A DNA stretch of 64,000 nt from Minisyncoccota bacterium (GCA_036400935.1 DASWWW010000003.1:35716-99715), one strand, 5' to 3'; positions 10,300 to 62,271 are shown, numbered from the stretch's first letter. Made by a program: numbers and translations. Notes: generated from the sequence alone by a model not told the origin.

Positions 10300-10355
10300 C
10301 CGGAATCTGTACGGACCGGACGCTAAGCCGCAAGGCCTAACGTAAGGTAAGTCGA

Positions 10356-10390
10356 AAAACACCCCTTCTTTCGAAGGGGTGTTTTTCGTT
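10356..10390 (+). terminator. Rho-independent terminator.
   Basis: aaaaacaccccttc-tttc-gaaggggtgttttt hairpin. Confidence 0.6.
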
Positions 10391-10410
10391 GTCTGGGATA
10401 TAATAATCGC

Positions 10411-11400: not shown

Positions 11401-11486
11401 TTATCAACAGGGAAGGGTGAATCTTTAGGGTTTCTTTATGGCCGTGCTGAGATGATAGCCTGATGGAAAAGGTATTTCATTCAAAT

Positions 11487-11519
11487 AAAAAGCCGCGCAC
11501 GAAGTGCGCGGCTTTTTTC
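11487..11519 (+). terminator. Rho-independent terminator.
   Basis: aaaaagccgcgcac-gaa-gtgcgcggctttttt hairpin. Confidence 0.55.
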
Positions 11520-11543
11520 TATTCACATAAAGAAAAAATAAAA

Positions 11544-12812: not shown

Positions 12813-12813
12813 T

Positions 12814-22649: not shown

Positions 22650-23009
22650 TACTTCTACCTCCAAATGGTTATTAATTCTCATCTAGCGCGAACGAAATAA
22701 AGGCCATTCAGTTGGCTATATTACGTTTCGCTCGAGAGAGCGATTTCTTTTTTAAGGGGGTATGTTGTTTCTTCGACAATAGAACCCCACCGCATGAGTC
22801 TTTCGAGTCAGTCCTACAAGGGACCGATGAGATGGTCTTTTCAAGCATGCAGGTGACTGCAATGATCTATAGATGGTTATTGCAAAACCTACTTTTTTCC
22901 AGGAAAGAAAAAGTAGAACAGGTAAATTAAAGTATTGAATTTCTGTTCGTTGTAAGCGAACAGGGATCATTGAGAGAAATTAGTTTAGTGGTTTTTAAAT
23001 TTCCTAATA

Positions 23010-26300
<3,291 letters not shown>

Positions 26301-26412
26301 TTATTAGGAAATTTATGAATCACACATGCCGTTCGAAAGGACAGCGGTGGTCTAGTTTCCTCAACTTTATTTACTTGAAATTACATATTTCCGAAAAACA
26401 ACATGATTGAGC

Positions 26413-40757: not shown

Positions 40758-41099
40758 TGTACTTACCTCTGAAAAACTCAGGTTTGAGGAAAAAAGACTT
40801 CGAAAGATGTCCTTTTTCTTTAAGGGGGACGGCAACTGTCGGACTTTGAAATAATTATTGTTATATAAGATTGAGAACGTGCAGAAGAGAGACTGGTTCA
40901 AGTTTCTTTGAATGTACGAGTCCAAATCTTTGAGTATGTTGGATACTGCGATCGGGTCAAAATTCGGACCAAGAGCAGATAATAGGATTGTGGAGGCGGG
41001 AAAGCACCCGTGAATCTCCCAGAGCAAAATATGCAGCAGTTCATACTGTCGTCTATTTTGTTCCGTTCGCTTTGTGCGCTCTTCGGAGCTTCAAAGTTT

Positions 41100-42592: not shown

Positions 42593-42765
42593 AGTGAAAA
42601 CACGCTTCTTATCTACGGATAAGAGCTGATAGAGTCGATCGTTTCAATAACGGGTTCGCGAGACACCTAAATCTCGCTGGAATCAGGGAAGACTGATAGA
42701 AGTCCGGTAGCCTTTATGGAGACCGAGATTAGAACGGGACAAAATAGAAGACAGTATACATGAAA

Positions 42766-47392: not shown

Positions 47393-48785
47393 ACGCCGCC
47401 TCGCCGCCGTCCGCCCTCACTTCCAATTTTCTGAATATATCAATAGTTTGGGCGCGCGCCGGATTCTCCGAGACTGCCGATCCGTCGATCCTTTCTTTGG
47501 ACATGCCTTCGGGCAGGGCGTCGCCGACGATCGTGATGTGGTGCGAGAGGAACGTCGTCGCGTAGGCTCCCTTTGGCAGGCTGAACGATACGAACGATCC
47601 GTGCTCGGAATTGCGCACCTCTATGTTCCGCGCCGTCTCGATCGTCTTTACAGTCCTATGGGCGAGTCGGATAAAGGGTAGCGGCTTGAGGTTCTGGAAT
47701 GGCGGCGGAAACATGCCGAGGGCGGTGAGTTCCTTTCTGTACGCCTCGATATCGGCCCTGTCGAACGAGAATATGAAAGGCAGGACCGTCGGCGGGCGCA
47801 TGTCCTTCTGGACGAAGCTCGATATCTTCTCGTTGAAGAGCAGGGAGGCCAGGCCGTAGAGCCAGAGCTGCACCTGATCGGGAATGAGGTTGAGCGCTCC
47901 TGTAAAATCCTTTGGGTTCGAGATGAGCCGGTCGAGCATCGGCGCCTCGCAATGCATGATGTTGAGGATAGGATCAAAGACCTCCTTTACCTCTGCCCAG
48001 GTCTTTTTCGTCTTGGCCTCGTTGCGCAGCTGGGATATGAAAGGAAGCTCTCGCGGCTGCACGTCGAACATGACGCTCCGGACGGCCGCCTCGTAATTGC
48101 CGCGAAGGAGCTCGAATCCCCAGAGGTAGTTGATGAGGCGCGGGCTGCCGAATCGCTGCATGTAGAAATAGTTGTAGAAATCCTCGCTCGGCTTGTCGGC
48201 GAGGGCGATCGTCTCGCCCGGATTCATGCGCAGGAATATGCCGAAGCGGTTTCCGGACAGGTTGGTCATGCTTATGACTCCTTTGCCTCGAGCGACATCC
48301 TTGAGGAAATAGAAGGGCGACGATACGTTCCTCAGCGCGCTCTCGTCGGCGCCGCGCAGCGATATGCGCTGCGACGTCACCGCGTGCTTGTCCTTGATTC
48401 CCGCATAGCCGATCGATTTTTCAGGGATGTTGAGCTGCTTCGCCAGATCCTTCACCACTTCGAGGGTGGAGAGGCTGCATTTTACGAGCGTGGCATAGAT
48501 CGTGTCGCCCTCGCCGTCGATAGCGGAGTCTTTTGCGAGCACGTTCTCATGGTCGATGGTAAGCACTTTGCCCGATAGGTCGATTTCCTCGACGATGAAG
48601 TCCTCGGCATAGAGCTTCATGAAGCCCTGAGGCAGCAACTCCTTGCCGGGAATGAATATGCCAAAGCGGCTGAGGTCCTGAGCGCTCTCGACAAACGAGG
48701 GCTTGGTGAAAAGCTCGGGATGCTCGGCGAGTGCCTTCTTTACGACGGGGTGGTTGTGGCTGATCATTTGCCTGTAATTATACAC
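47391..48785 (-). CDS. truD: tRNA pseudouridine synthase TruD/Pus7 family.
   Basis: 464 aa. Catalytic motif GYAGIKDKHAVTSQ (TruD GxKD) and the TruD-like core RFGSPRLINYLWGFELL. Confidence 0.7.
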   Translation of the reverse strand: MYNYRQMISHNHPVVKKALAEHPELFTKPSFVESAQDLSRFGIFIPGKELLPQGFMKLYAEDFIVEEIDLSGKVLTIDHENVLAKDSAIDGEGDTIYATLVKCSLSTLEVVKDLAKQLNIPEKSIGYAGIKDKHAVTSQRISLRGADESALRNVSSPFYFLKDVARGKGVISMTNLSGNRFGIFLRMNPGETIALADKPSEDFYNYFYMQRFGSPRLINYLWGFELLRGNYEAAVRSVMFDVQPRELPFISQLRNEAKTKKTWAEVKEVFDPILNIMHCEAPMLDRLISNPKDFTGALNLIPDQVQLWLYGLASLLFNEKISSFVQKDMRPPTVLPFIFSFDRADIEAYRKELTALGMFPPPFQNLKPLPFIRLAHRTVKTIETARNIEVRNSEHGSFVSFSLPKGAYATTFLSHHITIVGDALPEGMSKERIDGSAVSENPARAQTIDIFRKLEVRADGGEAA

Positions 48786-49657
48786 GCTACGGTTCCTGCG
48801 AATGTCGCGCCTTTCGCCTTTGCCCTGATGAGTCCGGCAAGAGACAGTGCGCCGTTTCCAGTCGCCTCGATGGCGGCTTTTTCTTTGAGCAAGTTCTGGG
48901 CGGTCCTTATATTCGCATTGGTAGCGATCCAGCCGTTTCCGCGCGTTTCGGTGAGTATTTTTTCAAGGGCGGTGCGGCGATGGGCGACGCGGTCGACGAT
49001 GGCGTCAGCGAGGGATTCTTCTTTCGCCGCTGATGCCTGCGCGGCGCCGTCCTTGTCGAAATCGGCGGCCATGGTCGATACCTCGGTTGTCTGAACGATA
49101 TGCACGGCGATTTTCTTGCCTGTGTTATGGAAATACTCGGCGAGGGCCTGGGCAGTCGTGCCCGACGACGTGGCGACAAAGACGTCCGAAAGGTTCGGCA
49201 GATATGAGAGGTCCTCTGCGAGCTCGTGATAGCCGGCAAGCGCGCTGTCGTCATTGGACTGGCGTAGGCTCACGGCCGAGGTGCCCTTTATAAAATTCAT
49301 CAGGGACTGGAGCGGGCGAGGGGCGGTTGCGATGGTGATAGCGCTGTCTGCGCCGATCTCGGATTCGAGCCGCGCCTTCTTGCCCGCGTCGATGTGCTCG
49401 CCGACGAATACCGAGAGGGTGAGGCCGCGGCCCTCGGCATTCAATTTCTGGATATGACGGACGGCGGCGAGGGCCGCGTTCCCGGACGAAGAGAGGGCGA
49501 AGCTTGTCGCGCCGAGGGCGACTTTCTCGTCTATCATTCGGGGGATGGAGCGCCCCTTGTGCGAGCCGTACGGATGGAGATCCTCTCGCTTCAAATAGAG
49601 GGCCGGAATGCCGAGAGTCGCGGCCAATTCAGGATATTCTTTCTGCGGGGTTGTCAT
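48764..49657 (-). CDS. PLP-dependent enzyme of the tryptophan-synthase-beta / threonine-synthase fold.
   Basis: LHPYGSHKGRS (compare the Lys-bearing LHPTGSFKDRG), a Gly-rich loop and SSSGNAALA. Start placed at MTTPQKEYPE; the tool's upstream extension lies in AT-rich leader sequence. Confidence 0.55.
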   Translation of the reverse strand: MTTPQKEYPELAATLGIPALYLKREDLHPYGSHKGRSIPRMIDEKVALGATSFALSSSGNAALAAVRHIQKLNAEGRGLTLSVFVGEHIDAGKKARLESEIGADSAITIATAPRPLQSLMNFIKGTSAVSLRQSNDDSALAGYHELAEDLSYLPNLSDVFVATSSGTTAQALAEYFHNTGKKIAVHIVQTTEVSTMAADFDKDGAAQASAAKEESLADAIVDRVAHRRTALEKILTETRGNGWIATNANIRTAQNLLKEKAAIEATGNGALSLAGLIRAKAKGATFAGTVACIITGK

Positions 49658-49710: not shown

Positions 49711-49875
49711 ATGAAATGCGTATGTCCAGAATGTAAGAACGATATCGACGTCTCGAAGCATCCAAAGATCGCTATCGGCTACGTCATCGAGTGCGATACC
49801 TGCGGCATCATGCTTGAGGTTCGATCGATGGACAATGGAACGGTAACAACGGAGATCGTAGACGAGGGCAAGTAG
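49711..49875 (+). CDS. Small zinc-ribbon protein, LysW-like (CxxC...CxxC).
   Basis: MKCVCPECKNDIDVSKHPKIAIGYVIECDTCGIMLEVRSMD...EIVDEGK resembles amino-group carrier LysW (CPECGAE...CEDCGAELEV). It lacks the C-terminal EDWGE tail. Confidence 0.4.
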   Translation: MKCVCPECKNDIDVSKHPKIAIGYVIECDTCGIMLEVRSMDNGTVTTEIVDEGK

Positions 49876-49904
49876 CAAAAGCCCCGCATCGCGGGGCTTT
49901 TGCT
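49875..49904 (+). terminator. Bidirectional rho-independent terminator.
   Basis: gcaaaagccccgc-atc-gcggggcttttgc hairpin. Confidence 0.65.
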
Positions 49905-51332
49905 TTATTTCTGTGCCAATTTTTTTACCGTCTCCTCAATCATACCCCTGAATCCGTGTGAGCCGAGGAAGGCGATGACGTCGCCTTCGCCGCGGGCCAT
50001 GGTTACGAAATCGACGAGCAGGCTGTCGTCGGCGATGTAGTGCACGTCCTTGTGCTTTGCCTCGATCGTGAGGGCGAGCTCCTCGCCGTCGAATGTCTTT
50101 TCTGGATTCGACTCGTCCACTTTTAGCTTTGAGAGGCGAGGGATGACGACCGTATCGGCATCCTTGAACGCGTCGTCGTATGCGGGCTTTGACTGCGGGG
50201 TGCGGTTGCCGATATTCGGCTCGTAGACGGCGATGATCATGCCGCTGTAGATCGAGCGGAGGTTTGCGAGCACGGATTTTGCCTTTTCAGGGCTATGCGC
50301 GATGTCGTCGATGACCGTGATCTTGTTCTCGTAGCGCTTCTCGAGGCGGCGCTTCATGCCGAGGAACGACTTGATCGCGTCGCTGATATCGCCCGGTGCG
50401 ATGCCCGAGGCGTGCGCCATGGCAAAGCAGCCGGTCACGTTCTCGGCATTGTACGCGCCGAGGAGAGGGCATTCGATATGGTACGTCTTGCCGTGATAGA
50501 CAATGTCAAAGGAGATGCCGGTTGGGGTCGATACCACTTTCTCGTAGCGGTAGTCGGCGTTCTTGTCCTTACCGTAGCTTATGAATTCGCGCTTTGCCGA
50601 TGCGAGCAATTTTGGCAGTGTCTCTGTGTCGATGCAGGCGACGATGACGCCCGTGCCCTCGGATGCTTTAGGCATGCCGGCGATGAGCTGCCTGAATGCG
50701 TCGAAATACGATTCCTCGGTAGGGTAGAGGTCAGCATGATCCCACTTTACGGCCGTAAGGAGGAGATGCGTCGGCTTGTAGTGGAAGAATTTCGCGCGCT
50801 TGTCCCACTTCGCGGTCGAGTACTCGTCGCCCTCGACGATAGACCAGTCGCCCGTGTCGACAGCGGCCGATGGGGCGCCGTCCTGAGTAAGCCCGCCGAC
50901 CATGTATGAGGGCTTCTTGCCCGCATGCTTGAAGATGTGGGTGAGCAAGGCGGAAGATGTCGTCTTGCCGTACGTTCCAGACACGACGATGGAATTTTTC
51001 TGGATCAAATATTCGCCGGTAGTCTCGGGGAACGACTTGAAAGGGATGCCGTGCTCCTTGGCATAGAGAAGCTCTGGGTTGTTCGACGACGCGGCATTGC
51101 CGACGACGATGAAATCGGGAGCGCCGCCCTCGATCATTTTTTCAGGGTGCCAGCCAGAGTAGTAGGGCACGCCGAGAGCCGTAAGGTGAGTCGAGATAGG
51201 CGGGAAGAAGCCTGCGTCGGAACCGGTGACCTTGAATCCCTTCTGCCAGAGGGCGGTAGCGACGGCTGACATGGCGACGCCGCAGATGCCTATAAAGTGG
51301 ACTTTTTGAGCGGTTTTGGTGGTCTGTGACAT
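49905..51332 (-). CDS. Mur ligase of the MurC/Mpl family (UDP-N-acetylmuramate-L-alanine or -tripeptide ligase).
   Basis: HFIGICGVAMSAVATALWQKGFKVTGSD, SGTYGKTTSSAL and EGDEYSTAKWDKRAKFFHY (closest to E. coli Mpl, EADEYDCAFFDKRSKFVHY). Start placed at MSQTTKTAQKVHFIG. Confidence 0.8.
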   Translation of the reverse strand: MSQTTKTAQKVHFIGICGVAMSAVATALWQKGFKVTGSDAGFFPPISTHLTALGVPYYSGWHPEKMIEGGAPDFIVVGNAASSNNPELLYAKEHGIPFKSFPETTGEYLIQKNSIVVSGTYGKTTSSALLTHIFKHAGKKPSYMVGGLTQDGAPSAAVDTGDWSIVEGDEYSTAKWDKRAKFFHYKPTHLLLTAVKWDHADLYPTEESYFDAFRQLIAGMPKASEGTGVIVACIDTETLPKLLASAKREFISYGKDKNADYRYEKVVSTPTGISFDIVYHGKTYHIECPLLGAYNAENVTGCFAMAHASGIAPGDISDAIKSFLGMKRRLEKRYENKITVIDDIAHSPEKAKSVLANLRSIYSGMIIAVYEPNIGNRTPQSKPAYDDAFKDADTVVIPRLSKLKVDESNPEKTFDGEELALTIEAKHKDVHYIADDSLLVDFVTMARGEGDVIAFLGSHGFRGMIEETVKKLAQK

Positions 51333-51411
51333 GGGTCTAAGGATAGCAATAAAGGCTAAAAAGGGCCATTGGAGTCGAAGATTTCTCGTTGTGTGGTATA
51401 ACTTACATGCA

Positions 51412-52629
51412 ATGAAGCGCACAACGATACAGGGCGTCGCCATACTCCTTCTTTTCGCCTTTTCCGTCTGGCTCGTATCGCTTGTCGGCATCGGTTTTGG
51501 TCGGGACAATCTTGCTGCCGTATTCAGCGTGGACAACGTTACGCCGCAAGAGCTGCAGGACAAGGGGCGACTCGCCTCTACCGACTCGCAAGCTCAGAAG
51601 ATCCGCATCTTCATCATGCCGGGGCACGAGCCGGATTTTGGCGGCACCGAATACCGCAAGCTCAAGGAGCGCGACATCAATATCGAGATCGCTACGGAGC
51701 TGCGGGACTTTTTGCATAAGGATGGCGCATATGACGTTGTGCTTGGGCGCGACGCTTCGGGATGGGATCCGCGGCTGAAGGAGTATCTGGACAAGAACGT
51801 GAAAGAGATCGACGCGTGGAGGGCCGATCAGGCTCGCATCATGCGCCAGCTCGTATCGGAAGGCGAGATTGAGGCCAAGACGGACGGCGTTCCGCATAGC
51901 TCCGCGCCGAAGGACGTGGCGAACAGGCTTTTCGGCATAAACAAGTGGGTGAGCGAGACCTATTTCGACCTCGTTATTCATATCCATATAAACGATTACG
52001 GGTCGCGCCGCTTCGACCGGCCGGGCGAATTTACCGGCTACTCGATCTACGTGCCTGACAGGCAATATTCCAATGCCGCGGCGGCGCGCCAAGTAGCCGA
52101 ATCCATCAGCTCGCGCCTCGACGATTTCGTCGCTCAGAGCGATCTGAAGAAGGAATCTGGCGGGGTAGTCGAGGATCAGGAGCTCGTAGCCGTGGGCCGA
52201 TACAATACCGTCGACGTGCCAAGCGTCCTTATCGAATACGGATACATATACGAGCCGCAGTTCCAGGACGCCGACGTGCGAAAGGCTGTCGTTCGCGAGT
52301 ACGCGTATCAGACGTACTTGGGATTGCGCGAATTCTTCTCGTCGGGCATCGCTCGAACGGGCGCTTTGCCGACCGTCACTCTTCCGTATGAATTCAAAAA
52401 AGATATCCGCGAAAGCTCCAGCTATAGCACCGACATTTTTGCCCTGCAGATGGCGCTTGCCCAAGCCCGAGCCTATCCGGCAAAGGGAAGGACTCTCAAC
52501 GACTGCCCGATATCGGGATATTTCGGGGCATGCACTAAAAACGCCCTGACGGCATTCCAGGCGGCCAAAGGCATAACAGGGGAGAAGGGGTATGCGGGCG
52601 AGAATACTCGTGCGGTACTGAATTATTGA
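51412..52629 (+). CDS. N-acetylmuramoyl-L-alanine amidase (Amidase_3) with a C-terminal peptidoglycan-binding domain.
   Basis: IMPGHEPDFGG, HIHINDYG and LIEYGYIYE (amidase_3 zinc site). C-terminal PG_binding_1-like segment FALQMALAQA...GYFGACTKNALTAFQAAKGI. Start placed at MKRTTIQ (51412). Confidence 0.8.
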   Translation: MKRTTIQGVAILLLFAFSVWLVSLVGIGFGRDNLAAVFSVDNVTPQELQDKGRLASTDSQAQKIRIFIMPGHEPDFGGTEYRKLKERDINIEIATELRDFLHKDGAYDVVLGRDASGWDPRLKEYLDKNVKEIDAWRADQARIMRQLVSEGEIEAKTDGVPHSSAPKDVANRLFGINKWVSETYFDLVIHIHINDYGSRRFDRPGEFTGYSIYVPDRQYSNAAAARQVAESISSRLDDFVAQSDLKKESGGVVEDQELVAVGRYNTVDVPSVLIEYGYIYEPQFQDADVRKAVVREYAYQTYLGLREFFSSGIARTGALPTVTLPYEFKKDIRESSSYSTDIFALQMALAQARAYPAKGRTLNDCPISGYFGACTKNALTAFQAAKGITGEKGYAGENTRAVLNY

Positions 52630-53177: not shown

Positions 53178-53235
53178 TCGACGATTCGTCTCGTGGCCCG
53201 TACTCATTGGAGTGCGGGCTTTTTTATTTCACGGA

Positions 53236-53658
53236 CTACTCGTGATGATACTTCTCGTTCTTGAGGATGGTGAATGCTCGATAGAGCTGCTCGAGGAAGA
53301 TGACGCGCACGAGGTCGTGGGGGAATGTCATTTTTGAGAGGGCGATGGTGCCGTCGGCGATGTCGCGTACCGCCTGAGTAAATCCGAATGGCCCGCCGAC
53401 TACGAAGGCAAGGCTCTTTGGGCTCATGTTGAGCTGCTTCTCTATGAATTGCGACATCTCTACCGACGTGTACTCGCGGCCCTTCTCGTCGAGGAGGTAC
53501 ACGCGCTCGAATTTTTCCAAAGTCTTTTCAAGCTTGTCGTCGGTCGTCTCTACGAATTCAAACGGGCTGTAGCGGCTGATGCGTCCTGAATAGTCCCGGA
53601 TCGATTCCTGGAGCTCCTTGATGCTTGTCTTGCCGATAGTGACGAGGGCGATTTTCAT
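53236..53658 (-). CDS. rlmH: 23S rRNA (pseudouridine1915-N3)-methyltransferase RlmH (SPOUT).
   Basis: MKIALVTIGKTSIKELQESIRDY...YLLDEKGREYTSVEMSQFIE...LAFVVGGPFGFTQAVRDIADGTIALSKMTFPHDLVRVIFLEQLYRAFTILKNEKYHH. The tool's longer ORF upstream is Arg-rich junk, so the start was moved to MKIALV. Confidence 0.8.
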   Translation of the reverse strand: MKIALVTIGKTSIKELQESIRDYSGRISRYSPFEFVETTDDKLEKTLEKFERVYLLDEKGREYTSVEMSQFIEKQLNMSPKSLAFVVGGPFGFTQAVRDIADGTIALSKMTFPHDLVRVIFLEQLYRAFTILKNEKYHHE

Positions 53659-53666
53659 GAGATTGA

Positions 53667-54335
53667 TTATTTGAGGATCTCTTTGAGGGGCGCCGTATCC
53701 GCTCGCCATGTCTCTCCGTCGAACCACTCTCCGCCGAGGAATTGGAGCTTGTAGGTGTCGCTTGGGCGCTGGAGGGAGCCGAGGTACATGTATTTCTTGC
53801 CCGAAGCCTTGGCCCATTCGATGGCCTTGGTCATCATGCCGAGACCGCGCGACGGCTCGCTCGCGTCTTCGATATAGAAAGGAAAGCTGTAGTGGATGAT
53901 GTCCGCCGTTTCGGCGCAGATCACGTACCCGACAGGCTGGCCTGCGGTAGGGCTGTCGGTTCGGGTGTCGGTGAATACCAGGAGCTTGTTGAAGTTGCTC
54001 TTTGCGGCGTCCGTGACGATCTCCTTGGTCTTGTTGGCCGAGAAAACGTTGTCGCCGAATTTCTCGTAGAAGTCCTTTGCCAGCTTGCCGATCTTCCACG
54101 AATAGTCGGCATAGGGGATAGTCTCGGCCGATAGGGCGAGGTGCTCAGACTTGCGCATGATGCGGCGATTCTCGGATGACGACACGTACGCGCCCAGGTC
54201 GATCCTGAAAGACCGCGTCTTGTTCATCACGCCCCTGTCGACGCGCGTGAAAACATAGCCCTTGTCGTACATGGCCTCGATGTTGGCGACAGAGAAGTCG
54301 CTTATGATTTGCGTGTCCCAGTTGAGGTAGGTCAT
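53667..54335 (-). CDS. Aminoacyl-tRNA-protein transferase-like protein (ATE_C / Bpt-like GNAT fold).
   Basis: The C-terminal segment YMYLGSLQRPSDTYKLQFLGGEWFDGETW resembles the R-transferase/Bpt C-terminal block (YLGYW...YK..F.P.E...G.W). Assignment is from memory, not a search. Confidence 0.35.
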   Translation of the reverse strand: MTYLNWDTQIISDFSVANIEAMYDKGYVFTRVDRGVMNKTRSFRIDLGAYVSSSENRRIMRKSEHLALSAETIPYADYSWKIGKLAKDFYEKFGDNVFSANKTKEIVTDAAKSNFNKLLVFTDTRTDSPTAGQPVGYVICAETADIIHYSFPFYIEDASEPSRGLGMMTKAIEWAKASGKKYMYLGSLQRPSDTYKLQFLGGEWFDGETWRADTAPLKEILK

Positions 54336-54339
54336 TGAA

Positions 54340-55491
54340 TTAGTGAAGCCCGATCCAGACGCCGAGGAGGACGAAGCCGAAGTGGATCACCCAGAGGCGC
54401 ATGATGGTCTTTTCCTCGCTCCAGCCGCATAGTTCGAGGTGATGGTGAAGGGGAGCCATGCGGAATACGCGTCGGCCAAAGATGTGCCGGCCGATAGCCT
54501 GGATCATGACGGTGATCGCCTCGGCATAGAACATAAAGGCGATGAAAGGCAGGATGGCCATCGAGTTTACGGCCAGCGCGTTGATGGCGAGGAGTGCGCC
54601 CAATCCGAGCGATCCGACGTCTCCCATCTGGAAGCGGGCAGGCTTGATATTGAAATAAGTATACGAGACGAGCGATCCGGCTGTGACGGCGTTCAAAATG
54701 GCGAGAGCGTCGAAGCCGTATATCCACGCCATGAATGCGAGCGCGCCGAATGTGGGGATGAGCATTCCACCCGCGAGCCCGTCCATGCCGTCAGAGACGT
54801 TTACAGCGTTCGCCGTGAACATGACGATGAGGATGATGAGGGGGATGATCAGGATGCCGATGCTCTCGTACCCGTGGAAAGGGATGTATATGTCCCTCCA
54901 TGCCTCGCCGAGCTTATAGTAGATCCACCATGCCGATACGGCGCCGGCTGCGAACTGAAGGATGAGCTTCTCGTGCACGAGCACGCCGGTGCGCTGCTTT
55001 GACCCAAGGACGGTCGTCATGCGCTTGAAGAGCGTCCAAGGCAGGGTGACGATGAGCCAGAGCTTTACGTACCACAGCTTGTGGACGCGAATGAGGGTCA
55101 TTGTCTGGGCGAGCGAGCGCTGCCTGCGGATGCCTCCGAATACGTTCAGGAGGTCGTCGATCGCGCCAAGGAGGGCCGCGATAAAGAGCACGCCTATAGG
55201 CACCCACGTGAACTGTCGGTCCCAGTTCCAGAGATAGGTGAATACGAGAACGGTGAGAATGACGAGGAGGCCTCCCATGATAGGGGTCTGGGCCTTTCCT
55301 TGGCGGCTCTCGAGCTCCATCGTCTTGTCGCCGGCGCTCTTGCGGGCGATGCCGTAGCGGCGCAAAAACGAGATGAGAAGCGGCGCTGCGGCGAGGCTGG
55401 CTATGCTCGCGGCAATGCCAAAGCCGAGGATGAGGATGAGACTGTCGATCTGGGAAGGGAGAAAGTCGGTCATGGCTTCATTATATAGCAA
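54340..55491 (-). CDS. mraY: Phospho-N-acetylmuramoyl-pentapeptide transferase.
   Basis: 383 aa with about 10 TM helices and the motif ANAVNVSDGMDGLAGG. Confidence 0.9.
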   Translation of the reverse strand: MLYNEAMTDFLPSQIDSLILILGFGIAASIASLAAAPLLISFLRRYGIARKSAGDKTMELESRQGKAQTPIMGGLLVILTVLVFTYLWNWDRQFTWVPIGVLFIAALLGAIDDLLNVFGGIRRQRSLAQTMTLIRVHKLWYVKLWLIVTLPWTLFKRMTTVLGSKQRTGVLVHEKLILQFAAGAVSAWWIYYKLGEAWRDIYIPFHGYESIGILIIPLIILIVMFTANAVNVSDGMDGLAGGMLIPTFGALAFMAWIYGFDALAILNAVTAGSLVSYTYFNIKPARFQMGDVGSLGLGALLAINALAVNSMAILPFIAFMFYAEAITVMIQAIGRHIFGRRVFRMAPLHHHLELCGWSEEKTIMRLWVIHFGFVLLGVWIGLH

Positions 55492-56257
55492 ACTTCAGGC
55501 GGCGTACGGAAACTTCCTTGGCGTCGGCCGCGCTCTGATAGGTGTAGTTGTCGGCTCCTGTCACGCTGCGCTCCTTCCAGGTGCCGGCAAGGATATCGTT
55601 GTCGCGTATGAGAATGTCGCCTTCGCGCACGCCGGTATCGTAGAGGCCGTCCGACGGCCATGCATACGAGTGGGCGTACGAGAGCCGGATGCCGTTTTCT
55701 GATCGCTCGACGGCGGTGATGACGAGGATGTGATTATAGGTCTTGTCCTTGCCCGTGCCGATGAAGGTAACGATGTCGCCGGGCTTCGCGTCGGCAGCTG
55801 AAATGGCTGAGCTGTTCTTGTCGTTCCGAAACGAGTTCACTCCGAGGTTCTCTGCGGGGCGCAGGCGGGCGAGGATCGAGCCGATGAATCCCGACCGCAT
55901 CGACGTCACGTAGCTCGCTATGCCCTTGCCCTTGGTCTCGAGAGCGAGCGCGTTGAGCACGTGATAGGCGAATCCAGAGCAGTCGACGCCGAGGCCATTC
56001 TCGACGAGGAACTGCTTGAGCTTGTCGGTCGCGAGAGTCTGGATATCCGTTCGTGCGAGCTTTGCCATGATAGTCGCTTCCTCGACGATCTCAGCGGGCG
56101 AGCCTTTTCCGATCATCACGCGCAGGCCGCCGCGATTCTTGAATCGGCGGTTGTTGTAGTAGGGGCACGAAGGCTTCGTGCCGACAGGCAATGCCAAATA
56201 GGCGTCGATTACGGCGCGCGCATTGGTCGGGATCGCTGCAGTTTCTACTTGATGCAT
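55481..56257 (-). CDS. NlpC/P60-like papain-fold cysteine peptidase/amidase family protein.
   Basis: GLGVDCSGFAYHVL (Cys nucleophile) and, later, AKPGDIVTFIG...YNHILVI (His), in the NlpC/P60 order. The ORF overlaps mraY and the ATP-grasp gene, indicating an operon. Confidence 0.45.
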   Translation of the reverse strand: MHQVETAAIPTNARAVIDAYLALPVGTKPSCPYYNNRRFKNRGGLRVMIGKGSPAEIVEEATIMAKLARTDIQTLATDKLKQFLVENGLGVDCSGFAYHVLNALALETKGKGIASYVTSMRSGFIGSILARLRPAENLGVNSFRNDKNSSAISAADAKPGDIVTFIGTGKDKTYNHILVITAVERSENGIRLSYAHSYAWPSDGLYDTGVREGDILIRDNDILAGTWKERSVTGADNYTYQSAADAKEVSVRRLKFAI

Positions 56258-57432
56258 GATGAGATTTTCTTACCCAAGGCGTTGAGGACGTTGTGGTCCT
56301 CCATTATACCGACATGCGACTGAATACGGAAAAGCTCCTTGTTGTGAGCGTCGTTCTCGTATTCAGTCACCGCGAGCTTCATCTCGCGGAGCGCGCCGAC
56401 GTCGACAGTGTGCGGGACTTTCGTCACGCGCGATACGATCTGCGCGCCGACGTAGATGTTCGAGGTCGAGGTCGGGAAGAGGCGATTGAGCAAGCCGGCG
56501 ATGTGGGCCTGAAAGACGCTCGCCGATCCGCGGCTGTCGTGATGGAGCGTTTTCTGGAGCGTCGACTCGAATACTGCCGACGCCGCCTGCCGCGCGTTTA
56601 TCTCGAGCAGGTACATCTTTCCGGTCTCTGCATCCTTGATCGCGTCGATGCCAAAGAGGCCGCGCCAGCCGTCCTTCTTGAGTCGCTTGCCGACGATACG
56701 GGCGATCTTCGCGACTTGGCGGCGCTCTTTGCCGGTGGGCAGGGCCCAGTCGTTGCCGATCGTAGAGAAAGGAAGGTCTGTGAAAGGCTGTAGCCCGGTG
56801 ATCTGATAGCTCGGCGAGCCGATGAGCACGCGAGCGCGGTTGACCGAGGCGTTTATGGTAAAGACCGGCCCATCGACAAAGTCCACGATGCGGCATTCGC
56901 GGTCAGGAAATTTCGCCTTGAGCGCCTCGAGATCCTTTGCCGACTCGATGACGAATGTGCCTTGCCCCGTATGCGAGTGATTGAACTGGAGGACGAATCG
57001 CTTGCCCTTGAACGTCACGTCTTTGACGACGGTGACCTTGTGCGGCGGCAAAAGGCCGGCATCCTCGCCGAGCCACGCGACTTGCGAGATTTTCTCCTCT
57101 ACCTTTCGGGCGAGGGCTGCCGAAGGGTTGATGAGATTCCATTTCATTTCGGCGGCGATCCTCTCGATGCGCGGCGTGTTCTGGAATACGACGAGATCTG
57201 CGTCGAGCTTGCTGATGATCTTCTCCACTTCGGGAAGGGCGAGCAGGTCGTGCGTGTCGAGAGCCTCGGTATTCTTTACGAGAAAGACGTGGTCGGGATG
57301 CTTTGCCTGTATTTCGCGTCCGTGCGGGGTGTCGTTCGACACTATGAAATACTTGCCCTCGGGCTTCATTCCCAGGGCCCTTTCTATATCTCGGGTGACG
57401 TAGACAAGCGGTTTTTTGAGGCGTATGGACAT
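56245..57432 (-). CDS. ATP-grasp domain enzyme (carboxylate-amine ligase).
   Basis: GLFGIDAIKDAETGKMYLLEINARQ is the ATP-grasp C-terminal core. 395 aa. It is the first gene of the minus-strand operon ending in rlmH. Confidence 0.6.
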   Translation of the reverse strand: MSIRLKKPLVYVTRDIERALGMKPEGKYFIVSNDTPHGREIQAKHPDHVFLVKNTEALDTHDLLALPEVEKIISKLDADLVVFQNTPRIERIAAEMKWNLINPSAALARKVEEKISQVAWLGEDAGLLPPHKVTVVKDVTFKGKRFVLQFNHSHTGQGTFVIESAKDLEALKAKFPDRECRIVDFVDGPVFTINASVNRARVLIGSPSYQITGLQPFTDLPFSTIGNDWALPTGKERRQVAKIARIVGKRLKKDGWRGLFGIDAIKDAETGKMYLLEINARQAASAVFESTLQKTLHHDSRGSASVFQAHIAGLLNRLFPTSTSNIYVGAQIVSRVTKVPHTVDVGALREMKLAVTEYENDAHNKELFRIQSHVGIMEDHNVLNALGKKISSCIK

Positions 57433-57455: not shown

Positions 57456-57677
57456 ATGATCAAGCCAGGAATATATAGGCATTCGAAGAAGGGGAACGAG
57501 TATCGCGTCATCGGTACCGGCAAGCATACCGAGACGCTCGAATCGATGGTCGTCTACGAGGCGCTCTACGATAACAAAGAGTCAAAGATCTGGGTGCGCC
57601 CCGAAGAGATGTTTCAGGAGATCGTCGAGGTGAACGGAGCCAAGGTCCCGCGATTTGTATTCGTGAGGGCGGAGTAG
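57456..57677 (+). CDS. DUF1653-family small protein.
   Basis: GIYRHSKKGNEYRVIGTGKHTETLESMVVYEALYDNKESKIWVRPEEMF matches the DUF1653 pattern. Confidence 0.55.
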   Translation: MIKPGIYRHSKKGNEYRVIGTGKHTETLESMVVYEALYDNKESKIWVRPEEMFQEIVEVNGAKVPRFVFVRAE

Positions 57678-57689: not shown

Positions 57690-58355
57690 ATGGCAACTCT
57701 CTATATAGTGGCGACCCCGATAGGCAATCTCGAGGACATAACTTTCCGCGCTGTCCGCGTGCTCAAGGAAGTCTCGGCCGTCTTTTGCGAGGACACCCGC
57801 ACGTCGCGTGTCCTATTCTCCAAATACGGCATCGAGACCAAGGCCGAGAGCTTTCACGCTCAGAGCCCTTTGTCGCGCATAGACTACATATCCGAACTTT
57901 TGGAGGGCGGCAGCGATCTTGCTCTCATTTCGGACGCCGGCACTCCAGGCATATCCGATCCGGGCATGGTTCTGGTCTCCGAAGTGCGCAAACGCCTGCC
58001 GCAGGTACAGGTGATCGCCATTCCGGGCCCGTCAGCCCTTACCGCCGCTGTCTCTGTCGCGGGCCGACCCCTGCATGAGTTCGTTTTCCTCGGATTTTTG
58101 CCGCACAAGAAAGGCCGCCAGACTATTTTCGAAGAGATTAAGGCGGGCGAGAGGCCGTACGTCTTCTACGAGTCTCCGCACCGCATAGAAAAGACTCTTG
58201 AATCGCTCAAGGAGATCCCGAAGACCGTCACCGTCCTCCGCGAGATTACGAAAGTGTACGAGTCGTACATTTCAGGCACTGCCGAAGAGGTTTTGACGAG
58301 TTTCAAGAGCAACCCGGAGACTCTCCGCGGCGAATTCGTGGTCATCGTCGGATAA
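57690..58355 (+). CDS. rsmI: 16S rRNA (cytidine1402-2'-O)-methyltransferase RsmI.
   Basis: LYIVATPIGNLEDITFRAVRVLKEVSAVFCEDTRTS and the tetrapyrrole-methylase-like fold, 221 aa. Confidence 0.85.
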   Translation: MATLYIVATPIGNLEDITFRAVRVLKEVSAVFCEDTRTSRVLFSKYGIETKAESFHAQSPLSRIDYISELLEGGSDLALISDAGTPGISDPGMVLVSEVRKRLPQVQVIAIPGPSALTAAVSVAGRPLHEFVFLGFLPHKKGRQTIFEEIKAGERPYVFYESPHRIEKTLESLKEIPKTVTVLREITKVYESYISGTAEEVLTSFKSNPETLRGEFVVIVG

Positions 58356-58424
58356 GAAATCGCCGCGCATTCGAAAATTACTTCCATCGCGTGCTATAAT
58401 TGCCGCATAATTTTTTATATTTGA

Positions 58425-58634
58425 ATGCGATACAGAAACATAATCATCGGCCTCGGTTTTTTCGTCGTCATTATCCAGTTCTTGGGCTTCCCTCAGTCAT
58501 GGAGGAACGCCTTTTACGCAGTTTCGGGTATCCTGATCGTCGCCGGAGGCTACATGTCTGACAAGGAGCGCAAGATGCATCCTGCGGCGGCCACCGTCTC
58601 CACATCCGCCGACAGCTCAGGTACCCTCTCATAA
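58425..58634 (+). CDS. Small hypothetical membrane protein.
   Basis: 69 aa with two hydrophobic helices. Support is weak. Confidence 0.3.
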   Translation: MRYRNIIIGLGFFVVIIQFLGFPQSWRNAFYAVSGILIVAGGYMSDKERKMHPAAATVSTSADSSGTLS

Positions 58635-58640
58635 ATTCCT

Positions 58641-59891
58641 GTGGCGCAAGGCAGAACGAAAGAGAGCATAAGGGCTTATCGCATCGGGGTCGCCGTCCTG
58701 ATAGCCTTTTTGTTCCTCTTTATCGTCATATATGCCGGCGTGCCGGGTGGCGACATCAGCTATACGTCGGGGACGCCCGCTAGCGTAGCTACGTCGGCGC
58801 CGGCGGCGCCACTGATTCCCGAAGTCCCGCATCTCGCGACGCCGCCGGCGGTCAAAGGCATATATATGACGTCGTGCGTGGCCGCCACCCCGAGCCTGCG
58901 CGACAATCTCGTGAAGCTCATCGATGAGACCGAAATAAACTCTGTCGTCATCGATATAAAGTCGTTCGACGGGTACCTCTCGTTCGAGCCGGAGAACCCC
59001 GATCTCAAGCACGCTACCGGCGGCTGCTTTGTAAAGGACATGAAGGACTTCCTCGAGACGCTCCATGATCACAATATCTACGTCATCGGCCGCCTCGCCT
59101 CGTTCCAGGACGCGCTGCAGGTAAAGCTTCGCCCGGAGCTTGCCGTAAAGAAGGCGACGGCGACTTCTACCGTCTGGCGCGATCACAAGGGAATCCCTTG
59201 GATCGACGCTTCGGCCCGGCCGCACTGGGAATACCTCATTGCCGTGGCAAAGGACGCGTACGCGGTCGGCTTTGACGAGGTCAATTTCGATTACATCCGC
59301 TTTCCGTCTGACGGCAACATGAAGGACATCAGCTTCCCATGGAGCGGGGACAGGAAGAAGAGCGAGGTCATGCGATCCTTCTTTGAATATATCCACGAGG
59401 AATTGGGACCTACCAAGATCGTTACCTCCGCCGACCTCTTTGGCATGACGACGACTAATACCGACGACCTCAATATAGGTCAGATCCTTGAATATGCATT
59501 GCCCAATTTCGACTACATCGCCCCGATGGTCTATCCGTCGCACTATCCGAAGGGATTCATGAACTTTTCCGATCCAAATCAGCACGTGTACGAGGTGGTC
59601 AATCATTCGATGCAGGTAGCTGCGGACCGGACCGTTGCGACTACTACGAAGGTTCCGATGCCCGATTCGCGCATGGGCACGTCGACCCTCTACATGAAGC
59701 CCTCTTTCGATATCAACAAGCTCCGGCCGTGGCTTCAGGACAACAATTATCCGGTAACCTATACGGCCGAAATGGTGCGCGCGCAGATACAGGCAACTTA
59801 CGACATCGGCCTCAATTCATGGATGCTTTGGAATGCGGGGAATAGGTACACGAGGGCCGCTTTGGAGACCGCTACGAGCACCGATTTTTAG
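58641..59891 (+). CDS. Membrane-anchored putative glycoside-hydrolase-like TIM-barrel protein (DUF4015/GHL-like).
   Basis: 416 aa with an N-terminal TM helix, then GIYMTSCVAATP...VVIDIKSFDGYL...GFDEVNFDYIRFP. The antisense ORF 58629-59606 is rejected. Confidence 0.55.
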   Translation: MAQGRTKESIRAYRIGVAVLIAFLFLFIVIYAGVPGGDISYTSGTPASVATSAPAAPLIPEVPHLATPPAVKGIYMTSCVAATPSLRDNLVKLIDETEINSVVIDIKSFDGYLSFEPENPDLKHATGGCFVKDMKDFLETLHDHNIYVIGRLASFQDALQVKLRPELAVKKATATSTVWRDHKGIPWIDASARPHWEYLIAVAKDAYAVGFDEVNFDYIRFPSDGNMKDISFPWSGDRKKSEVMRSFFEYIHEELGPTKIVTSADLFGMTTTNTDDLNIGQILEYALPNFDYIAPMVYPSHYPKGFMNFSDPNQHVYEVVNHSMQVAADRTVATTTKVPMPDSRMGTSTLYMKPSFDINKLRPWLQDNNYPVTYTAEMVRAQIQATYDIGLNSWMLWNAGNRYTRAALETATSTDF

Positions 59892-59894
59892 CCT

Positions 59895-60250
59895 TAATTT
59901 GCACAAGGCGGTACTTGCAAACTTTTGTCAATTGGGTAGTATTGGGGAGTCTTGGCGGTACCAGGACCCTTCCTCTGGAAGGATTTCGTAATCAAGTAGC
60001 TCCTTAGAAAATGCGCACTAGCTCACGTCGGCGGTCGTTCCTGTCCTCGCAACCATCGCAGCAAACGGGAAATCCTTTCCCGAAGCCTGATTCGAACCGT
60101 GGCGGTTCTGATGATGGCCTCAAGTGGGTGCAGACGGGTTCGCGCCGCGGTCACTGGGAAAAGCGGTAGCGTAAGTGGCGGCGAGAAGGCTTCATCATCT
60201 CGTCATTCGAAGCTCGGCGGCGGATCACCCCTGATCCGCCGCTTTCGCTT
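59895..60250 (+). ncRNA. Candidate structured non-coding RNA with its own rho-independent terminator (60217-60250), class unknown.
   Basis: About 390-nt GC-rich gap with no credible ORF. Several local hairpins (ccttcc-tctg-ggaagg, gggaaa-tcc-tttccc) and a long-range 7-bp pairing (gaagcct at 60083 / aggcttc at 60186). It ends in the terminator ggcggcggatca-cccc-tgatccgccgc-tttcgcttt. Confidence 0.25.
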
Positions 60251-60285
60251 TGTCTAAATAAGATAAAAATGGCACAATAGGGCAA

Positions 60286-62271
60286 ATGACAAGCGACGAC
60301 AAGGTAACATATTTCGGCGAGACCGACGCGCGAGGCAAGAGGGTCAAATTCGGCATCAAGGCCGAGGACCGCACCCGCCACATGTACGTCATCGGAAAGA
60401 CGGGAATGGGAAAATCGAACCTTCTCGAGGTCATGGCCGTGCAGGATATCCAGAGCGGGGAAGGCCTCTGCTTTATCGACCCCCACGGCAAGACAGCCGA
60501 GCTTCTCCTCAATTACATCCCCGAGAACCGCATCAAGGATATCGTGTACTTCGCGCCGTTCGACGTGGACAATCCGATTTCCTTCAACGTCATGGAGGAC
60601 GTGGGCTACGACAAGCGACACCTTGTCGTTTCGGGCCTCATGTCCACCTTCAAGAAGATTTGGGTCGACGCATGGTCTGCCCGTATGGAATACATCCTCG
60701 GCAACACGCTTCTCGCGTTGCTTGAGTATCCCGACGCGACGCTCCTCGGCGTAAACAAGATGCTTTCGGACAAGGTCTACCGCAAGAAAGTGGTCGACAA
60801 TATTACCGATCCCGCCGTTAAGTCCTTCTGGGTCGACGAATTCGCGAAGTACACCGAGAAATTCGCCGCCGAGGCGACTCCCGCTATCCAGAACAAGATC
60901 GGACAGTTCACGAACAATCCTCTCATCCGAAACATCATCGGCCAGCCGAAATCATCGTTCGATATCCGAAAGATGATGGACGAGCGCAAGATCCTCATCG
61001 TGAACCTCTCGAAGGGACGAGTGGGCGAGTCGAATGCGAACCTCCTCGGAGCGATGTTCATCACGAAAATCTATCTCGCCGCCATGAGCCGTGCTGACGC
61101 GTCCGAAAAGATGATGAAGGCCCTGCCTAACTTCTACCTCTACGTAGACGAGTTCCAGTCGTTCGCCAACGAGTCGTTTGCTGACATCCTTTCCGAGGCC
61201 CGAAAATACAAATTGAACCTGACCATTGCTCACCAGTACGTCGAGCAGATGTCCGAGGAGGTGCGCGCGGCCGTATTCGGAAACGTGGGAACTATGATCG
61301 TTTTCCGCGTGGGCTCTATCGACGCCGAGCAGTTCGAGAAGGAGTTCGCTCCCAAATTCACTGCGGACGATATCGTAAACCTCGGCAAGTACCAGATGTA
61401 CTTGCGCCTTATGATCGACGGCGTGGGATCTCAGCCATTCTCTGCGAGGGGATTGCCGCCAGTAGCGGTGCCAGCCATATCGTATAAGGAGCAGGCGATC
61501 GCGGCTTCTCAGGCTACGTTCGGCAATCCGCGCGAGAAAGTCGAGGAATACATCCGCGAGTGGATGCTTGGCGGCCCCGCTGAGGCAAAGGCGGACAAGC
61601 CTGCCGCGGGCGACAAGGCGGTTTCGGCTACTCCCGCTTCGGGTTCGCCCGCGGCATTGGCACAGGTCCCTCGCGCCCCTCAGCAGGCGACGCGCCCGGC
61701 CCAGGATTTCCGAAAGCCTCAGGAGAACAGGCCGCCTCGCGCGCCGTCTCCTATAGACATGCGCCAGCCCGTAGCGCCAGTCCCTCCAAAGCCGCGACCC
61801 GCGATGCCTCTTCCGCCTGCGGATCCCGCTGACGGCTTTCAGGGCCTCGCTTCATTGAAATCTCTCGTCCAGGCTCCGGCTCCAAAGCCGGCGGCAGATA
61901 ATCGCCCAAAGGAGAATCGCCATCCGGAAAGAAAGGGCGTGACTGCCGAGTCGCGCCTCGATCTCAAGATGGCGTTGGCCGCCCTCATAAAGCCGGAACA
62001 GAATTCCAGCAAGCCTGCCGAGCCGAAACCTGCGCCTGCAAAGGACAAGCCGGCGGCGGTCCCAGCGGCGACCCAGGCAAAGCCGCCCGCTCCGGCCCCG
62101 GCCCACAAGATCGCGCCCGCCATAGACACCTCTCGCTCTACCGTGAAGCCCCAGGAAAAACCTGCTGAAAAACCGGCGGAAAAGCCGGTCGAAAAGGCGG
62201 CGCCTCAGCCAAAGAAAGAGGGCCTTCAGGAAGTTCCCGAGGACGTCCTAAAGAGGATGCTCGAAGTCTAA
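60286..62271 (+). CDS. TraD/TraG/VirD4-like (TrwB-type) P-loop ATPase, soluble, with a long Pro/Ala/Lys-rich C-terminal tail.
   Basis: Walker A HMYVIGKTGMGKSNLL, IDPHGKTAE (compare the DPKGE of coupling proteins), Walker B YLYVDEFQSF. There are no N-terminal TM helices. The C-terminal 200 aa are low-complexity (PAPKP-like repeats). Confidence 0.5.
   Translation: MTSDDKVTYFGETDARGKRVKFGIKAEDRTRHMYVIGKTGMGKSNLLEVMAVQDIQSGEGLCFIDPHGKTAELLLNYIPENRIKDIVYFAPFDVDNPISFNVMEDVGYDKRHLVVSGLMSTFKKIWVDAWSARMEYILGNTLLALLEYPDATLLGVNKMLSDKVYRKKVVDNITDPAVKSFWVDEFAKYTEKFAAEATPAIQNKIGQFTNNPLIRNIIGQPKSSFDIRKMMDERKILIVNLSKGRVGESNANLLGAMFITKIYLAAMSRADASEKMMKALPNFYLYVDEFQSFANESFADILSEARKYKLNLTIAHQYVEQMSEEVRAAVFGNVGTMIVFRVGSIDAEQFEKEFAPKFTADDIVNLGKYQMYLRLMIDGVGSQPFSARGLPPVAVPAISYKEQAIAASQATFGNPREKVEEYIREWMLGGPAEAKADKPAAGDKAVSATPASGSPAALAQVPRAPQQATRPAQDFRKPQENRPPRAPSPIDMRQPVAPVPPKPRPAMPLPPADPADGFQGLASLKSLVQAPAPKPAADNRPKENRHPERKGVTAESRLDLKMALAALIKPEQNSSKPAEPKPAPAKDKPAAVPAATQAKPPAPAPAHKIAPAIDTSRSTVKPQEKPAEKPAEKPVEKAAPQPKKEGLQEVPEDVLKRMLEV

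Follow-up and report, generated by a model that had tools for sequence, protein, structure and literature searches.

In Lactococcus lactis, aslA, which encodes the ATP-grasp D-Asp ligase, and the racemase gene racD belong to one operon, and the bridges made of L-amino acids are built by aminoacyl-tRNA-dependent transferases (PMC4155827). Transferases of this kind share a catalytic Lys preceded by Tyr or Phe, a His that binds the 3′ end of the tRNA, and a basic α3 helix (PMC9351520). Canonical LysW ends in EDWGE, with the terminal Glu as the reactive residue (PMC10433800). The locus described here resides in a 64-kb stretch of DNA from a Minisyncoccota bacterium (DASWWW010000003.1:35716-99715), an ultra-small organism of the Paceibacteria type within the candidate phyla radiation (CPR)/Patescibacteria; this whole stretch is referred to below as the window. 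Five tightly packed open reading frames (ORFs) on the minus strand, at positions 53236–57432, encode an ATP-grasp ligase, an NlpC/P60-like enzyme, MraY (phospho-MurNAc-pentapeptide translocase), a protein similar to ATE1-type transferases, and RlmH. They correspond to the five overlapping or abutting genes reported in an earlier note that was made from the sequence alone. The ATP-grasp, NlpC/P60-like, and ATE1-like proteins each have a counterpart with 100% identity in a metagenome-assembled genome of 'Candidatus Paceibacterota'. We know of no such operon with mraY in Firmicutes.

This five-gene unit represents only the local part of a more extensive module, which is built around MraY. The module consists of the ATP-grasp ligase, an NlpC/P60 amidase, an insertion-bearing MraY, an aminoacyl-tRNA-dependent transferase of either the ATE/Bpt or the FemAB type, a MurC-like ligase, a LysW-like protein, and an enzyme dependent on pyridoxal 5′-phosphate (PLP). 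It likely has a cytoplasmic role in the synthesis of peptidoglycan precursors. A more specific scheme, in which these precursors would be tailored in the cytoplasm and an amino-acid branch would be built before the lipid-carrier step, is proposed tentatively, with somewhat less than even confidence.

The gene of the ATP-grasp carboxylate-amine ligase (56245–57432, minus strand; 395 amino acids, aa) encodes a cytoplasmic three-domain protein similar to PurK, L-amino-acid ligases, and PylC. As read from the sequence, it overlaps by 13 nt with the gene of the NlpC/P60/CHAP-type papain-like Cys-His-His enzyme (55481–56257, minus strand; 258 aa), a cytoplasmic protein with a conserved N-terminal PYxNN...GKG region. 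The latter gene and mraY (54340–55491, minus strand; 383 aa) share an 11-nt overlap if the TTG start is used, or are separated by 7 nt if translation begins at the next ATG. A gap of 4 nt divides mraY from the gene of the minimal ATE1/Bpt-type aminoacyl-tRNA-dependent transferase-like protein (53667–54335, minus strand; 222 aa), here called the ATE-like protein, which is followed after 8 nt by rlmH (53236–53658, minus strand). The product of rlmH, the 23S rRNA pseudouridine-1915 methyltransferase, scored 143.7 bits with SPOUT_MTase and 159 bits with the NCBIfam RlmH model; the identities of both MraY and RlmH, as given in the earlier note, were clear in profile searches. Overall, these searches bore out the family assignments, with the low scores that are typical of the CPR. 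An 11-bp hairpin is present directly 3′ of rlmH (53195–53220).

Conservation of this arrangement was examined in one genome per GTDB species, which gave 80 loci, all from Patescibacteria; the window proteins were mapped to them by tblastn. Positions were counted relative to the ATE-like gene, with only those loci included in the denominators that had enough flanking sequence. The mraY gene was located directly upstream of the ATE-like gene at 72 of 72 loci, with a median gap of 18 nt, and was accompanied on this side by the NlpC/P60-like gene (62/63) and the ATP-grasp gene (58/59). Downstream of the ATE-like gene, the MurC-like ligase was found at 65 of 66 loci, while the LysW-like and the fold-type-II PLP-dependent (PALP) genes were present at all 59 loci that could be scored for each of them. 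The latter two genes were always paired and divergently transcribed. The same gene order was retained around homologues sharing 57, 54, and 44% identity, and held in nearly all of the 80 species-level genomes. The arrangement is far beyond chance, and operon conservation in relatives, which the earlier note had put forward as a check on its proposal, was thus observed. The only locus without the ligase and amidase genes, L059, carries an IS30-type transposase gene (HTH_38 + rve; 5110–6060) upstream of mraY. In the ABY1/Magasanikbacteria-type loci (L006–L008 and L090), murB replaces rsmI upstream of the module, and the block from the ATP-grasp gene through the PALP gene is intact. By contrast with the other members, rlmH was located downstream of the ATE-like gene at only 13 of 72 loci and is therefore a passenger outside the conserved module. 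Thus, the ligase, the NlpC/P60-like enzyme, MraY, and the ATE-like protein of the unit proposed earlier were retained, rlmH was removed from it, and the pairing of ligase with NlpC/P60 enzyme as well as the LysW-like, PLP-dependent, and MurC-like proteins, which had been missed as members, were added.

The ATP-grasp protein contains the motif GLFGIDAIKDAETGKMYLLEINARQ. Its match to the ATP-grasp_3 profile (27.1 bits; gathering score 23.2), together with the three-domain ATP-grasp fold of its model, places it in the ATP-grasp superfamily and agrees with the ligase assignment made in the earlier note. The AlphaFold models of this protein and of the ATE-like protein were built from family alignments and had a predicted local distance difference test (pLDDT) value of 93.6 each. 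Residues E277, N279, and R281 of the E-x-N(-x-R) motif and the ATP-binding K114 are invariant or at least 97% conserved. The EINARQ site is intact, and the protein belongs to the amino-acid-ligase/PylC/PurK clade. Two other identities were rejected. Affinity to RimK-type ribosomal modification enzymes, named earlier as a finding that would speak against the proposal, was not seen: the closest profile and fold matches lie outside the RimK/LysX clade, with PurK, L-amino-acid ligases, and PylC. Neither the Dala_Dala_lig profile nor the best fold match assigned the protein to the Ddl/Van family of D-Ala-D-Ala ligases.

The NlpC/P60-like protein of the window gave only sub-threshold profile matches, namely CHAP (19.4 bits; gathering score 26), NLPC_P60 (17.4 bits; gathering score 23), and Amidase_6 (16.7 bits); NLPC_P60 was matched by 33 of 36 family members, with a best E-value of 2.4e-5. 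The residues that make it a Cys/His enzyme, as described in the earlier note, are C93 (within DCSG), H176, and H196. They are invariant in the family alignment, at least 97% conserved in 83 sequences, and also present in the divergent fusion proteins described below. The protein possesses neither a signal peptide nor a transmembrane segment (maximal Kyte-Doolittle value of 1.09 in a 19-residue window) and is therefore considered cytoplasmic; signal peptides and transmembrane segments are absent from the ATP-grasp and ATE-like proteins as well. The possibility that it is a secreted NlpC/P60 wall hydrolase was rejected, given the lack of a hydrophobic segment and the fusion of its relatives to a cytoplasmic ligase. 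When the PDB was searched by sequence only, neither the individual ATP-grasp, NlpC/P60-like, and ATE-like proteins nor their family profiles yielded informative matches.

The fusions were revealed by a search of 1.8 billion cluster representatives with the profile of the NlpC-like family, which yielded 608 relatives. Among the best 150, which were analysed, 27 were proteins of 610–780 aa with a C-terminal NlpC/P60 domain, and all 18 of these 27 that were inspected carried the ATP-grasp ligase at the N-terminus. The fused gene occupies the same cluster position in L089 and L095, and the fusion protein P0094 is encoded within the same cluster. Ligase and amidase therefore behave as a single functional unit. 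A different fusion, ATP-grasp::NUDIX, occurs in one lineage (protein P0120; L090, 4596–6227), in the MurB-flanked version of the cluster, and gives a weak hint of a substrate linked to a nucleotide (nucleoside diphosphate).

Exact-protein look-up of two of the fusions, P0491 and P0496, led to the divergent loci L091 and L093, whose products share 30–46% identity with the window proteins; scans of metagenomes for the divergent fusion found nothing. Both loci display the same order: a LysW-like gene on the opposite strand is followed by the genes of the PALP enzyme, the ATP-grasp::NlpC/P60 fusion, and MraY in one orientation, and then, again on the opposite strand, by FemAB, DegT, and Mur-ligase-like genes. 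FtsW and MurG are encoded upstream in L093. As this contiguity indicates, MraY and the ligase/amidase are to be grouped with the LysW-like protein and the PLP enzyme. The FemAB protein of this lineage scored 120 bits with PF02388, and its gene adjoins mraY on the side that is occupied by the ATE-like gene in the window; no ATE-like gene was detected in the sequence examined for the two loci. The position next to mraY is therefore filled by one or the other family of aminoacyl-tRNA-dependent transferases. This is the strongest comparative argument, and the best one available, for a function of the ATE-like protein on wall precursors similar to that of Fem transferases. The three opposite-strand genes that come right after mraY, those of FemAB, the DegT-type aminotransferase, and the Mur-ligase-like protein, span 5110–8519 in L091 and 11362–14955 in L093. 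The Mur-ligase-like protein has only the middle and C-terminal domains, and its N-terminus is hydrophobic in L093.

The ATE-like protein itself was described in the earlier note as ATE_C/Bpt-like, GNAT-fold, and Fem-like. The fold assignment stands, and the protein does not belong to the Fem family. Profile scores were 22.2 bits for Acetyltransf_6, 17.4 bits for ATE_C (cut-off 25), and 37 bits (E-value 2e-9) for the NCBIfam arginyltransferase model. The top structural matches of its model were all aminoacyl-tRNA-dependent transferases, i.e. ATE1, MprF, L-PGS, FemX, and Sbb17. Acetyl-CoA-dependent GNAT proteins scored 10.4 or less against the model. The result from Foldseek was in agreement, with query-normalised template modelling (TM) scores of 0.65–0.71 against ATE1. 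Six residues, Y195, K196, H148, R57, R58, and K62, are invariant in 36 sequences; the Tyr195–Lys196 pair, His148, and the basic helix correspond to the features named for aminoacyl-tRNA transferases (PMC9351520). A weak local hhalign alignment of the family profile with a yeast Ate1 sequence, in which YK falls on YK, is regarded as a lead only. The hhalign gap placements disagree, putting either an acidic or a small residue into the donor pocket, and therefore no donor amino acid is predicted. The ATE_N domain with its Cys4 site was not matched in this protein, which has one Cys; no Cys is invariant in the family. No match to PF02388 (FemAB) was found either, and the protein has a single GNAT core instead of the tandem arrangement of ~330–430 aa. 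A minimal enzyme of the ATE/Bpt type, outside the Fem family, is the most fitting description of it.

MraY of the window was recognized by Glycos_transf_4 (PF00953; 78 bits) and, among NCBIfam models, best by TIGR00445 (162 bits, which is below the cut-off of 192). The catalytic motifs DD, NAVNVSDGMDGL, and PLHHHLE are visible in its translation. The alignment with MraY structures from the PDB (5jnq/4j72; E-value 1.7e-36) falls into two blocks, residues 21–117 and 165–381 of the query, and exposes an insertion of ~45 residues after the DD motif, at about residues 118–164, which is atypical for MraY. In 77 related MraY sequences, as well as in those of the divergent loci L091, L093, and L094, this insertion is retained together with its motifs (LPW and GS..G..VHEKL). 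The insertion is clade-specific and may be a docking element.

The remaining members of the module are encoded downstream of the five-gene unit. The LysW-like zinc-ribbon protein (49711–49875, plus strand; 54 aa) scored 37 bits with PF21344 (Zn_ribbon_LysW; gathering score 27), and its counterpart in L093 scored 48 bits. The motif CPEC...EC..CG is conserved in the family. Its tail in the window reads ...EIVDEGK, and the pattern (E/D)I(V/I)DEGK was found in about 80 species, with DAGK as the single exception; the tails in the divergent lineage are EEDK (L091) and EEEK (L093). The constant feature is an acidic run followed by a C-terminal Lys. These tails do not display the EDWGE end with terminal Glu, and the canonical LysW lysine pathway was rejected on these grounds. 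The isoelectric point (pI) of the LysW-like protein is acidic (4.6) versus the basic values of the ligase (9.4) and the amidase (9.1). The fold-type-II PLP-dependent enzyme (48764–49657, minus strand; 297 aa) scored 94 bits with PALP and shows weak similarity to ThrC, IlvA, and SbnA; across 79 sequences, conservation is at least 97% for its PLP lysine, K34 (SHK), and for the SSGT loop. The MurC-like (MurC/Mpl-type) ligase (49905–51332, minus strand) carries all three Mur ligase Pfam domains and was matched by both TIGR01082 murC (275 bits) and mpl (235 bits). The ends of the convergent LysW-like and MurC-like genes are separated by 29 nt, and this gap is occupied by a strong 14-bp hairpin (49874–49904), which is probably a bidirectional terminator. 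In several relatives, namely L001 (14395–15240), L004 (14099–14881), and L093 (5933–6775), the LysW-like gene is immediately followed in the same orientation by a Cu-oxidase_4 gene of the YfiH/PgeF type, which is absent at the corresponding position of the window. PgeF edits the products of MurC.

In comparison with the Firmicutes enzymes Fem/MurM/BppA and Aslfm/AslA/RacD, the module likewise combines an acyl-phosphate-forming ligase with an aminoacyl-tRNA-dependent GNAT-fold transferase beside genes for cytoplasmic peptidoglycan precursor synthesis. As with racD and aslA, a possible amino-acid-supplying enzyme adjoins the ligase, and a genuine FemAB gene is present in the L091 and L093 clusters. 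Unlike the Firmicutes side-chain enzymes, the transferase of the window is of the ATE/Bpt type, with 222 aa, a single GNAT core, and no match to PF02388; the ligase is paired with or fused to a Cys amidase, and the set includes a LysW-like protein and a MraY with an insertion. The likeness of the ATE-like protein to the ATE1/Bpt enzymes of the N-degron pathway consists of weak but specific profile matches and the conserved Tyr-Lys pair, His, and basic helix (PMC9351520). It differs from them in that the ATE_N Cys4 zinc/Fe-S finger and the first ~40–80 residues are missing, its scores are below the family cut-offs, and its gene is located in the context of cell-wall synthesis rather than of Clp and the N-degron. 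The acceptor is therefore probably not the N-terminal Asp or Glu of a protein.

The LysW/LysX/LysK system shares with the module an acidic zinc ribbon of the LysW family, of ~54 aa and with a constrained C-terminal tail, which is encoded together with an ATP-grasp ligase and a hydrolase. In the module, however, the tail ends in Lys instead of Glu, the ligase is not of the LysX/RimK type, and the hydrolase is a Cys peptidase rather than an M20 metallopeptidase. Genes for LysZ, LysY, and LysJ are lacking, and the neighbours are peptidoglycan genes. Glutathionylspermidine synthetase/amidase unites a CHAP amidase and an ATP-grasp-like synthetase in one protein. It thus resembles the module in coupling a papain-like Cys amidase to an ATP-dependent carboxylate-amine ligase, which implies that the same kind of amide bond is made and broken. 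It differs in domain order, since the ligase of the module is N-terminal, and the module ligase has no GSP_synth match, belongs to another ligase clade, and occurs in another context. Tubulin tyrosine ligase with vasohibin and RimK acting on ribosomal protein S6 are precedents in which a residue is attached by an ATP-grasp enzyme to the acidic C-terminus of a protein and is taken off again by a papain-like Cys peptidase. These systems, which are eukaryotic or ribosomal, are an analogy only, with no sequence relationship beyond the superfamily level.

From the gene content, the family and fold assignments, the conserved catalytic residues, the synteny, the fusions, and the presence of FemAB beside MraY, we infer a scheme of substrates, donor amino acids, and order of steps as follows. 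The PLP enzyme would supply a non-standard amino acid, either D-configured or β-substituted. The ATP-grasp enzyme would activate its carboxylate as an acyl-phosphate and ligate it to the ε-amino group of a lysine, which could belong to the stem peptide or be the C-terminal Lys of the LysW-like protein, the latter being used as a substrate in the form of a stem-peptide-like scaffold. The branch would then be lengthened by the ATE-like enzyme with an amino acid from aminoacyl-tRNA, as Fem transferases do. The NlpC/P60 enzyme would release or edit the product by hydrolysing the matching bond, be it a peptide or an isopeptide bond, and MraY would commit the product to the lipid carrier.

Several points weigh against this scheme. 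All of the loci were chosen via similarity to module proteins. The unrelated rsmI gene is adjacent in 47 of 53 loci, which reveals a high background synteny in these streamlined genomes, and conservation within the Paceibacteria alone is therefore weak evidence; the synteny argument rests mainly on a few distant lineages and on the fusions. The fold of the ATP-grasp protein matches PurK/PurT as closely as it does amino-acid ligases. No NCBIfam model named for D-Asp ligase matched this protein at an E-value of 1 or below, in a comparison that included no Aslfm or AslA reference. The acceptor of the ATE-like protein cannot be read from ATE1 because the ATE_N Cys4 finger is missing. The fusion of the ligase to an amidase is unexpected for simple side-chain synthesis, and none of the cross-bridge pathways known to us involves a LysW-like protein.

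A rival explanation is a mirror image of the amino-group-carrier cycle, in which the ligase/amidase pair would have the LysW-like protein as its true substrate. The C-terminal Lys of this protein would be held via the α-amino group, and the side chain would be modified by the PLP enzyme, with the ε-amine as the nucleophile, and/or by the aminoacyl-tRNA transferase. The NlpC/P60 enzyme would clip the modified Lys, the ATP-grasp ligase would reload Lys on the shortened C-terminus, and the released diamino acid or pre-branched lysine would enter the stem peptide via a Mur ligase. LysX and LysK acting on LysW, or tubulin tyrosine ligase and vasohibin acting on tubulin, would be comparable. The above-threshold LysW match, the universal Lys after acidic residues, the opposite charges of carrier and enzymes, the conserved PLP lysine, and the contiguity of the LysW-like, PALP, and ligase::amidase genes in L091 and L093 are all consistent with such a cycle, and the pairing of a ligase with a hydrolase follows the logic of known LysW systems (PMC10433800). 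Yet canonical LysW reacts via Glu and not via Lys, the LysW-like gene of the Paceibacteria lies 2–5 kb away from the ligase gene, on the other strand and beyond MurC, and enzymes of the LysZ, LysY, and LysJ types are not present. We consider this cycle unlikely. Still more doubtful is a complete carrier pathway of reversed polarity, in which the encoded C-terminal Lys of a LysW-type protein would be the working group. On the tail, the joint action of PLP enzyme, ATP-grasp ligase, and aminoacyl-tRNA transferase would yield a peptidoglycan building block, i.e. pre-branched lysine or a lysine-derived diamino acid, which would be clipped by the NlpC/P60 enzyme and passed to a Mur ligase and MraY, after which the carrier would be re-lysinylated by the ATP-grasp ligase. 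If true, a step templated by a protein would for the first time be recognized in the synthesis of peptidoglycan precursors, and an enzyme of the ATE/Bpt family would have its first role in the cell wall.

The module could also serve the supply and editing of the terminal dipeptide or the salvage of wall peptides. The PLP enzyme would then be a racemase and the ATP-grasp ligase would make a D-aminoacyl-D-amino-acid (or other) dipeptide, so that both replace Alr and Ddl; the NlpC/P60 enzyme would hydrolyse unwanted dipeptides or scavenged γ-D-Glu-diamino-acid peptides in the manner of VanX or YkfC, and the MurC/Mpl-like ligase would re-attach peptides to UDP-MurNAc. Within the 64-kb window we detected no ddl, alr, murE, second mraY, or Mur ligase other than the MurC-like one, and the latter scored with both murC and mpl. 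NlpC/P60 enzymes classically cut γ-D-Glu-diamino-acid bonds, VanA and VanX are a ligase–dipeptidase pair, and the YfiH/PgeF-type gene after the LysW-like gene in three loci is likewise in favour of this reading. The aminoacyl-tRNA transferase partner and the LysW-like protein are left unexplained by this alternative, which appears very unlikely. Highly improbable, in our estimate, is that the accessory genes are unrelated to the wall, with a Bpt-type N-degron transferase acting on proteins, a ligase/amidase that modifies some other metabolite or protein, and an adjacency to mraY that is no more than frozen synteny in a reduced genome. The closest sequence family of the ATE-like protein is indeed that of the arginyl/leucyl-tRNA-protein transferases, and genes as clearly unrelated as rsmI, DUF4015, rlmH, and truD are also syntenic with the block. 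However, the block outlasts its flanks in distant lineages, the ligase/amidase gene stands directly before mraY in all lineages down to 30% identity, and FemAB adjoins MraY on the ATE-like side. Genes for peptidoglycan synthesis (MurB, MurC, MurG, FtsW, and Mur-ligase-like) recur around the block, and the ATE-like protein lacks the ATE_N finger. Finally, a defence system was considered and dropped, as the PADLOC models gave zero matches for all module proteins. Cytoplasmic tailoring of peptidoglycan precursors around MraY remains the explanation that we favour.

The survey of the rest of the window revealed several other features. As listed in the earlier note beside the Mpl-like Mur ligase, an amidase and a SEDS polymerase are encoded in the window; profile matches identified an Amidase_3 protein at 51316–52629 and a SEDS protein at 27374–28519. 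On the other side of the unit, a DUF1653 gene (57456–57677) is divergent from the ATP-grasp gene, with a start-to-start spacing of 23 nt, and the promoters must therefore sit within adjoining coding sequence. A promoter scan gave seven candidates versus 4.4 expected from shuffling, with no convincing sigma-70-type promoter, and none of the candidates was used. Further upstream (57690–62271), the genes for RsmI, a DUF4015 glycosyl-hydrolase-like protein, and a VirD4/TraG-like coupling protein are syntenic with the module in most Paceibacteria loci, a further illustration of the high background synteny. The rRNA regions are located at 23002–26311 and 41099–42595; the 23S rRNA gene is interrupted by a group I intron (25755–26010), and the 16S rRNA gene is unlinked, ~15 kb downstream of the 23S/5S pair. 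A series of large, probably secreted proteins with PG_binding_1, Lamin-tail, PKD, β-helix, and LCAT-like lipase domains is encoded at 8428–16425 and may represent host-interaction factors.

The proposed chemistry itself is already known from Firmicutes (PMC4155827). What appears to be new is the ATE/Bpt-type transferase in the proposed role, the ligase–amidase fusion, the Lys-tailed LysW-like protein, and the insertion in MraY. The literature that we searched held no description of the module, nothing relevant that joins Patescibacteria, peptidoglycan, and ATP-grasp enzymes, and nothing that joins LysW and the CPR.

Few bacteria are as abundant, and few as poorly understood, as the Paceibacteria and their relatives, which obtain amino acids from hosts. 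To our knowledge, nothing has been established experimentally about their wall chemistry. MraY is an essential enzyme and an antibiotic target, and the module tied to it offers a testable entry to the way in which host-dependent cells build their sacculus. A new bifunctional ligase–amidase and a MraY insertion specific to one clade would call for an explanation. As markers for annotation, we offer the tail with its C-terminal Lys, the insertion in MraY, and the ligase–amidase fusion. If our interpretation holds, aminoacyl-tRNA-dependent wall decoration would extend to the ATE/Bpt family, and the LysW family would gain a new kind of tail.

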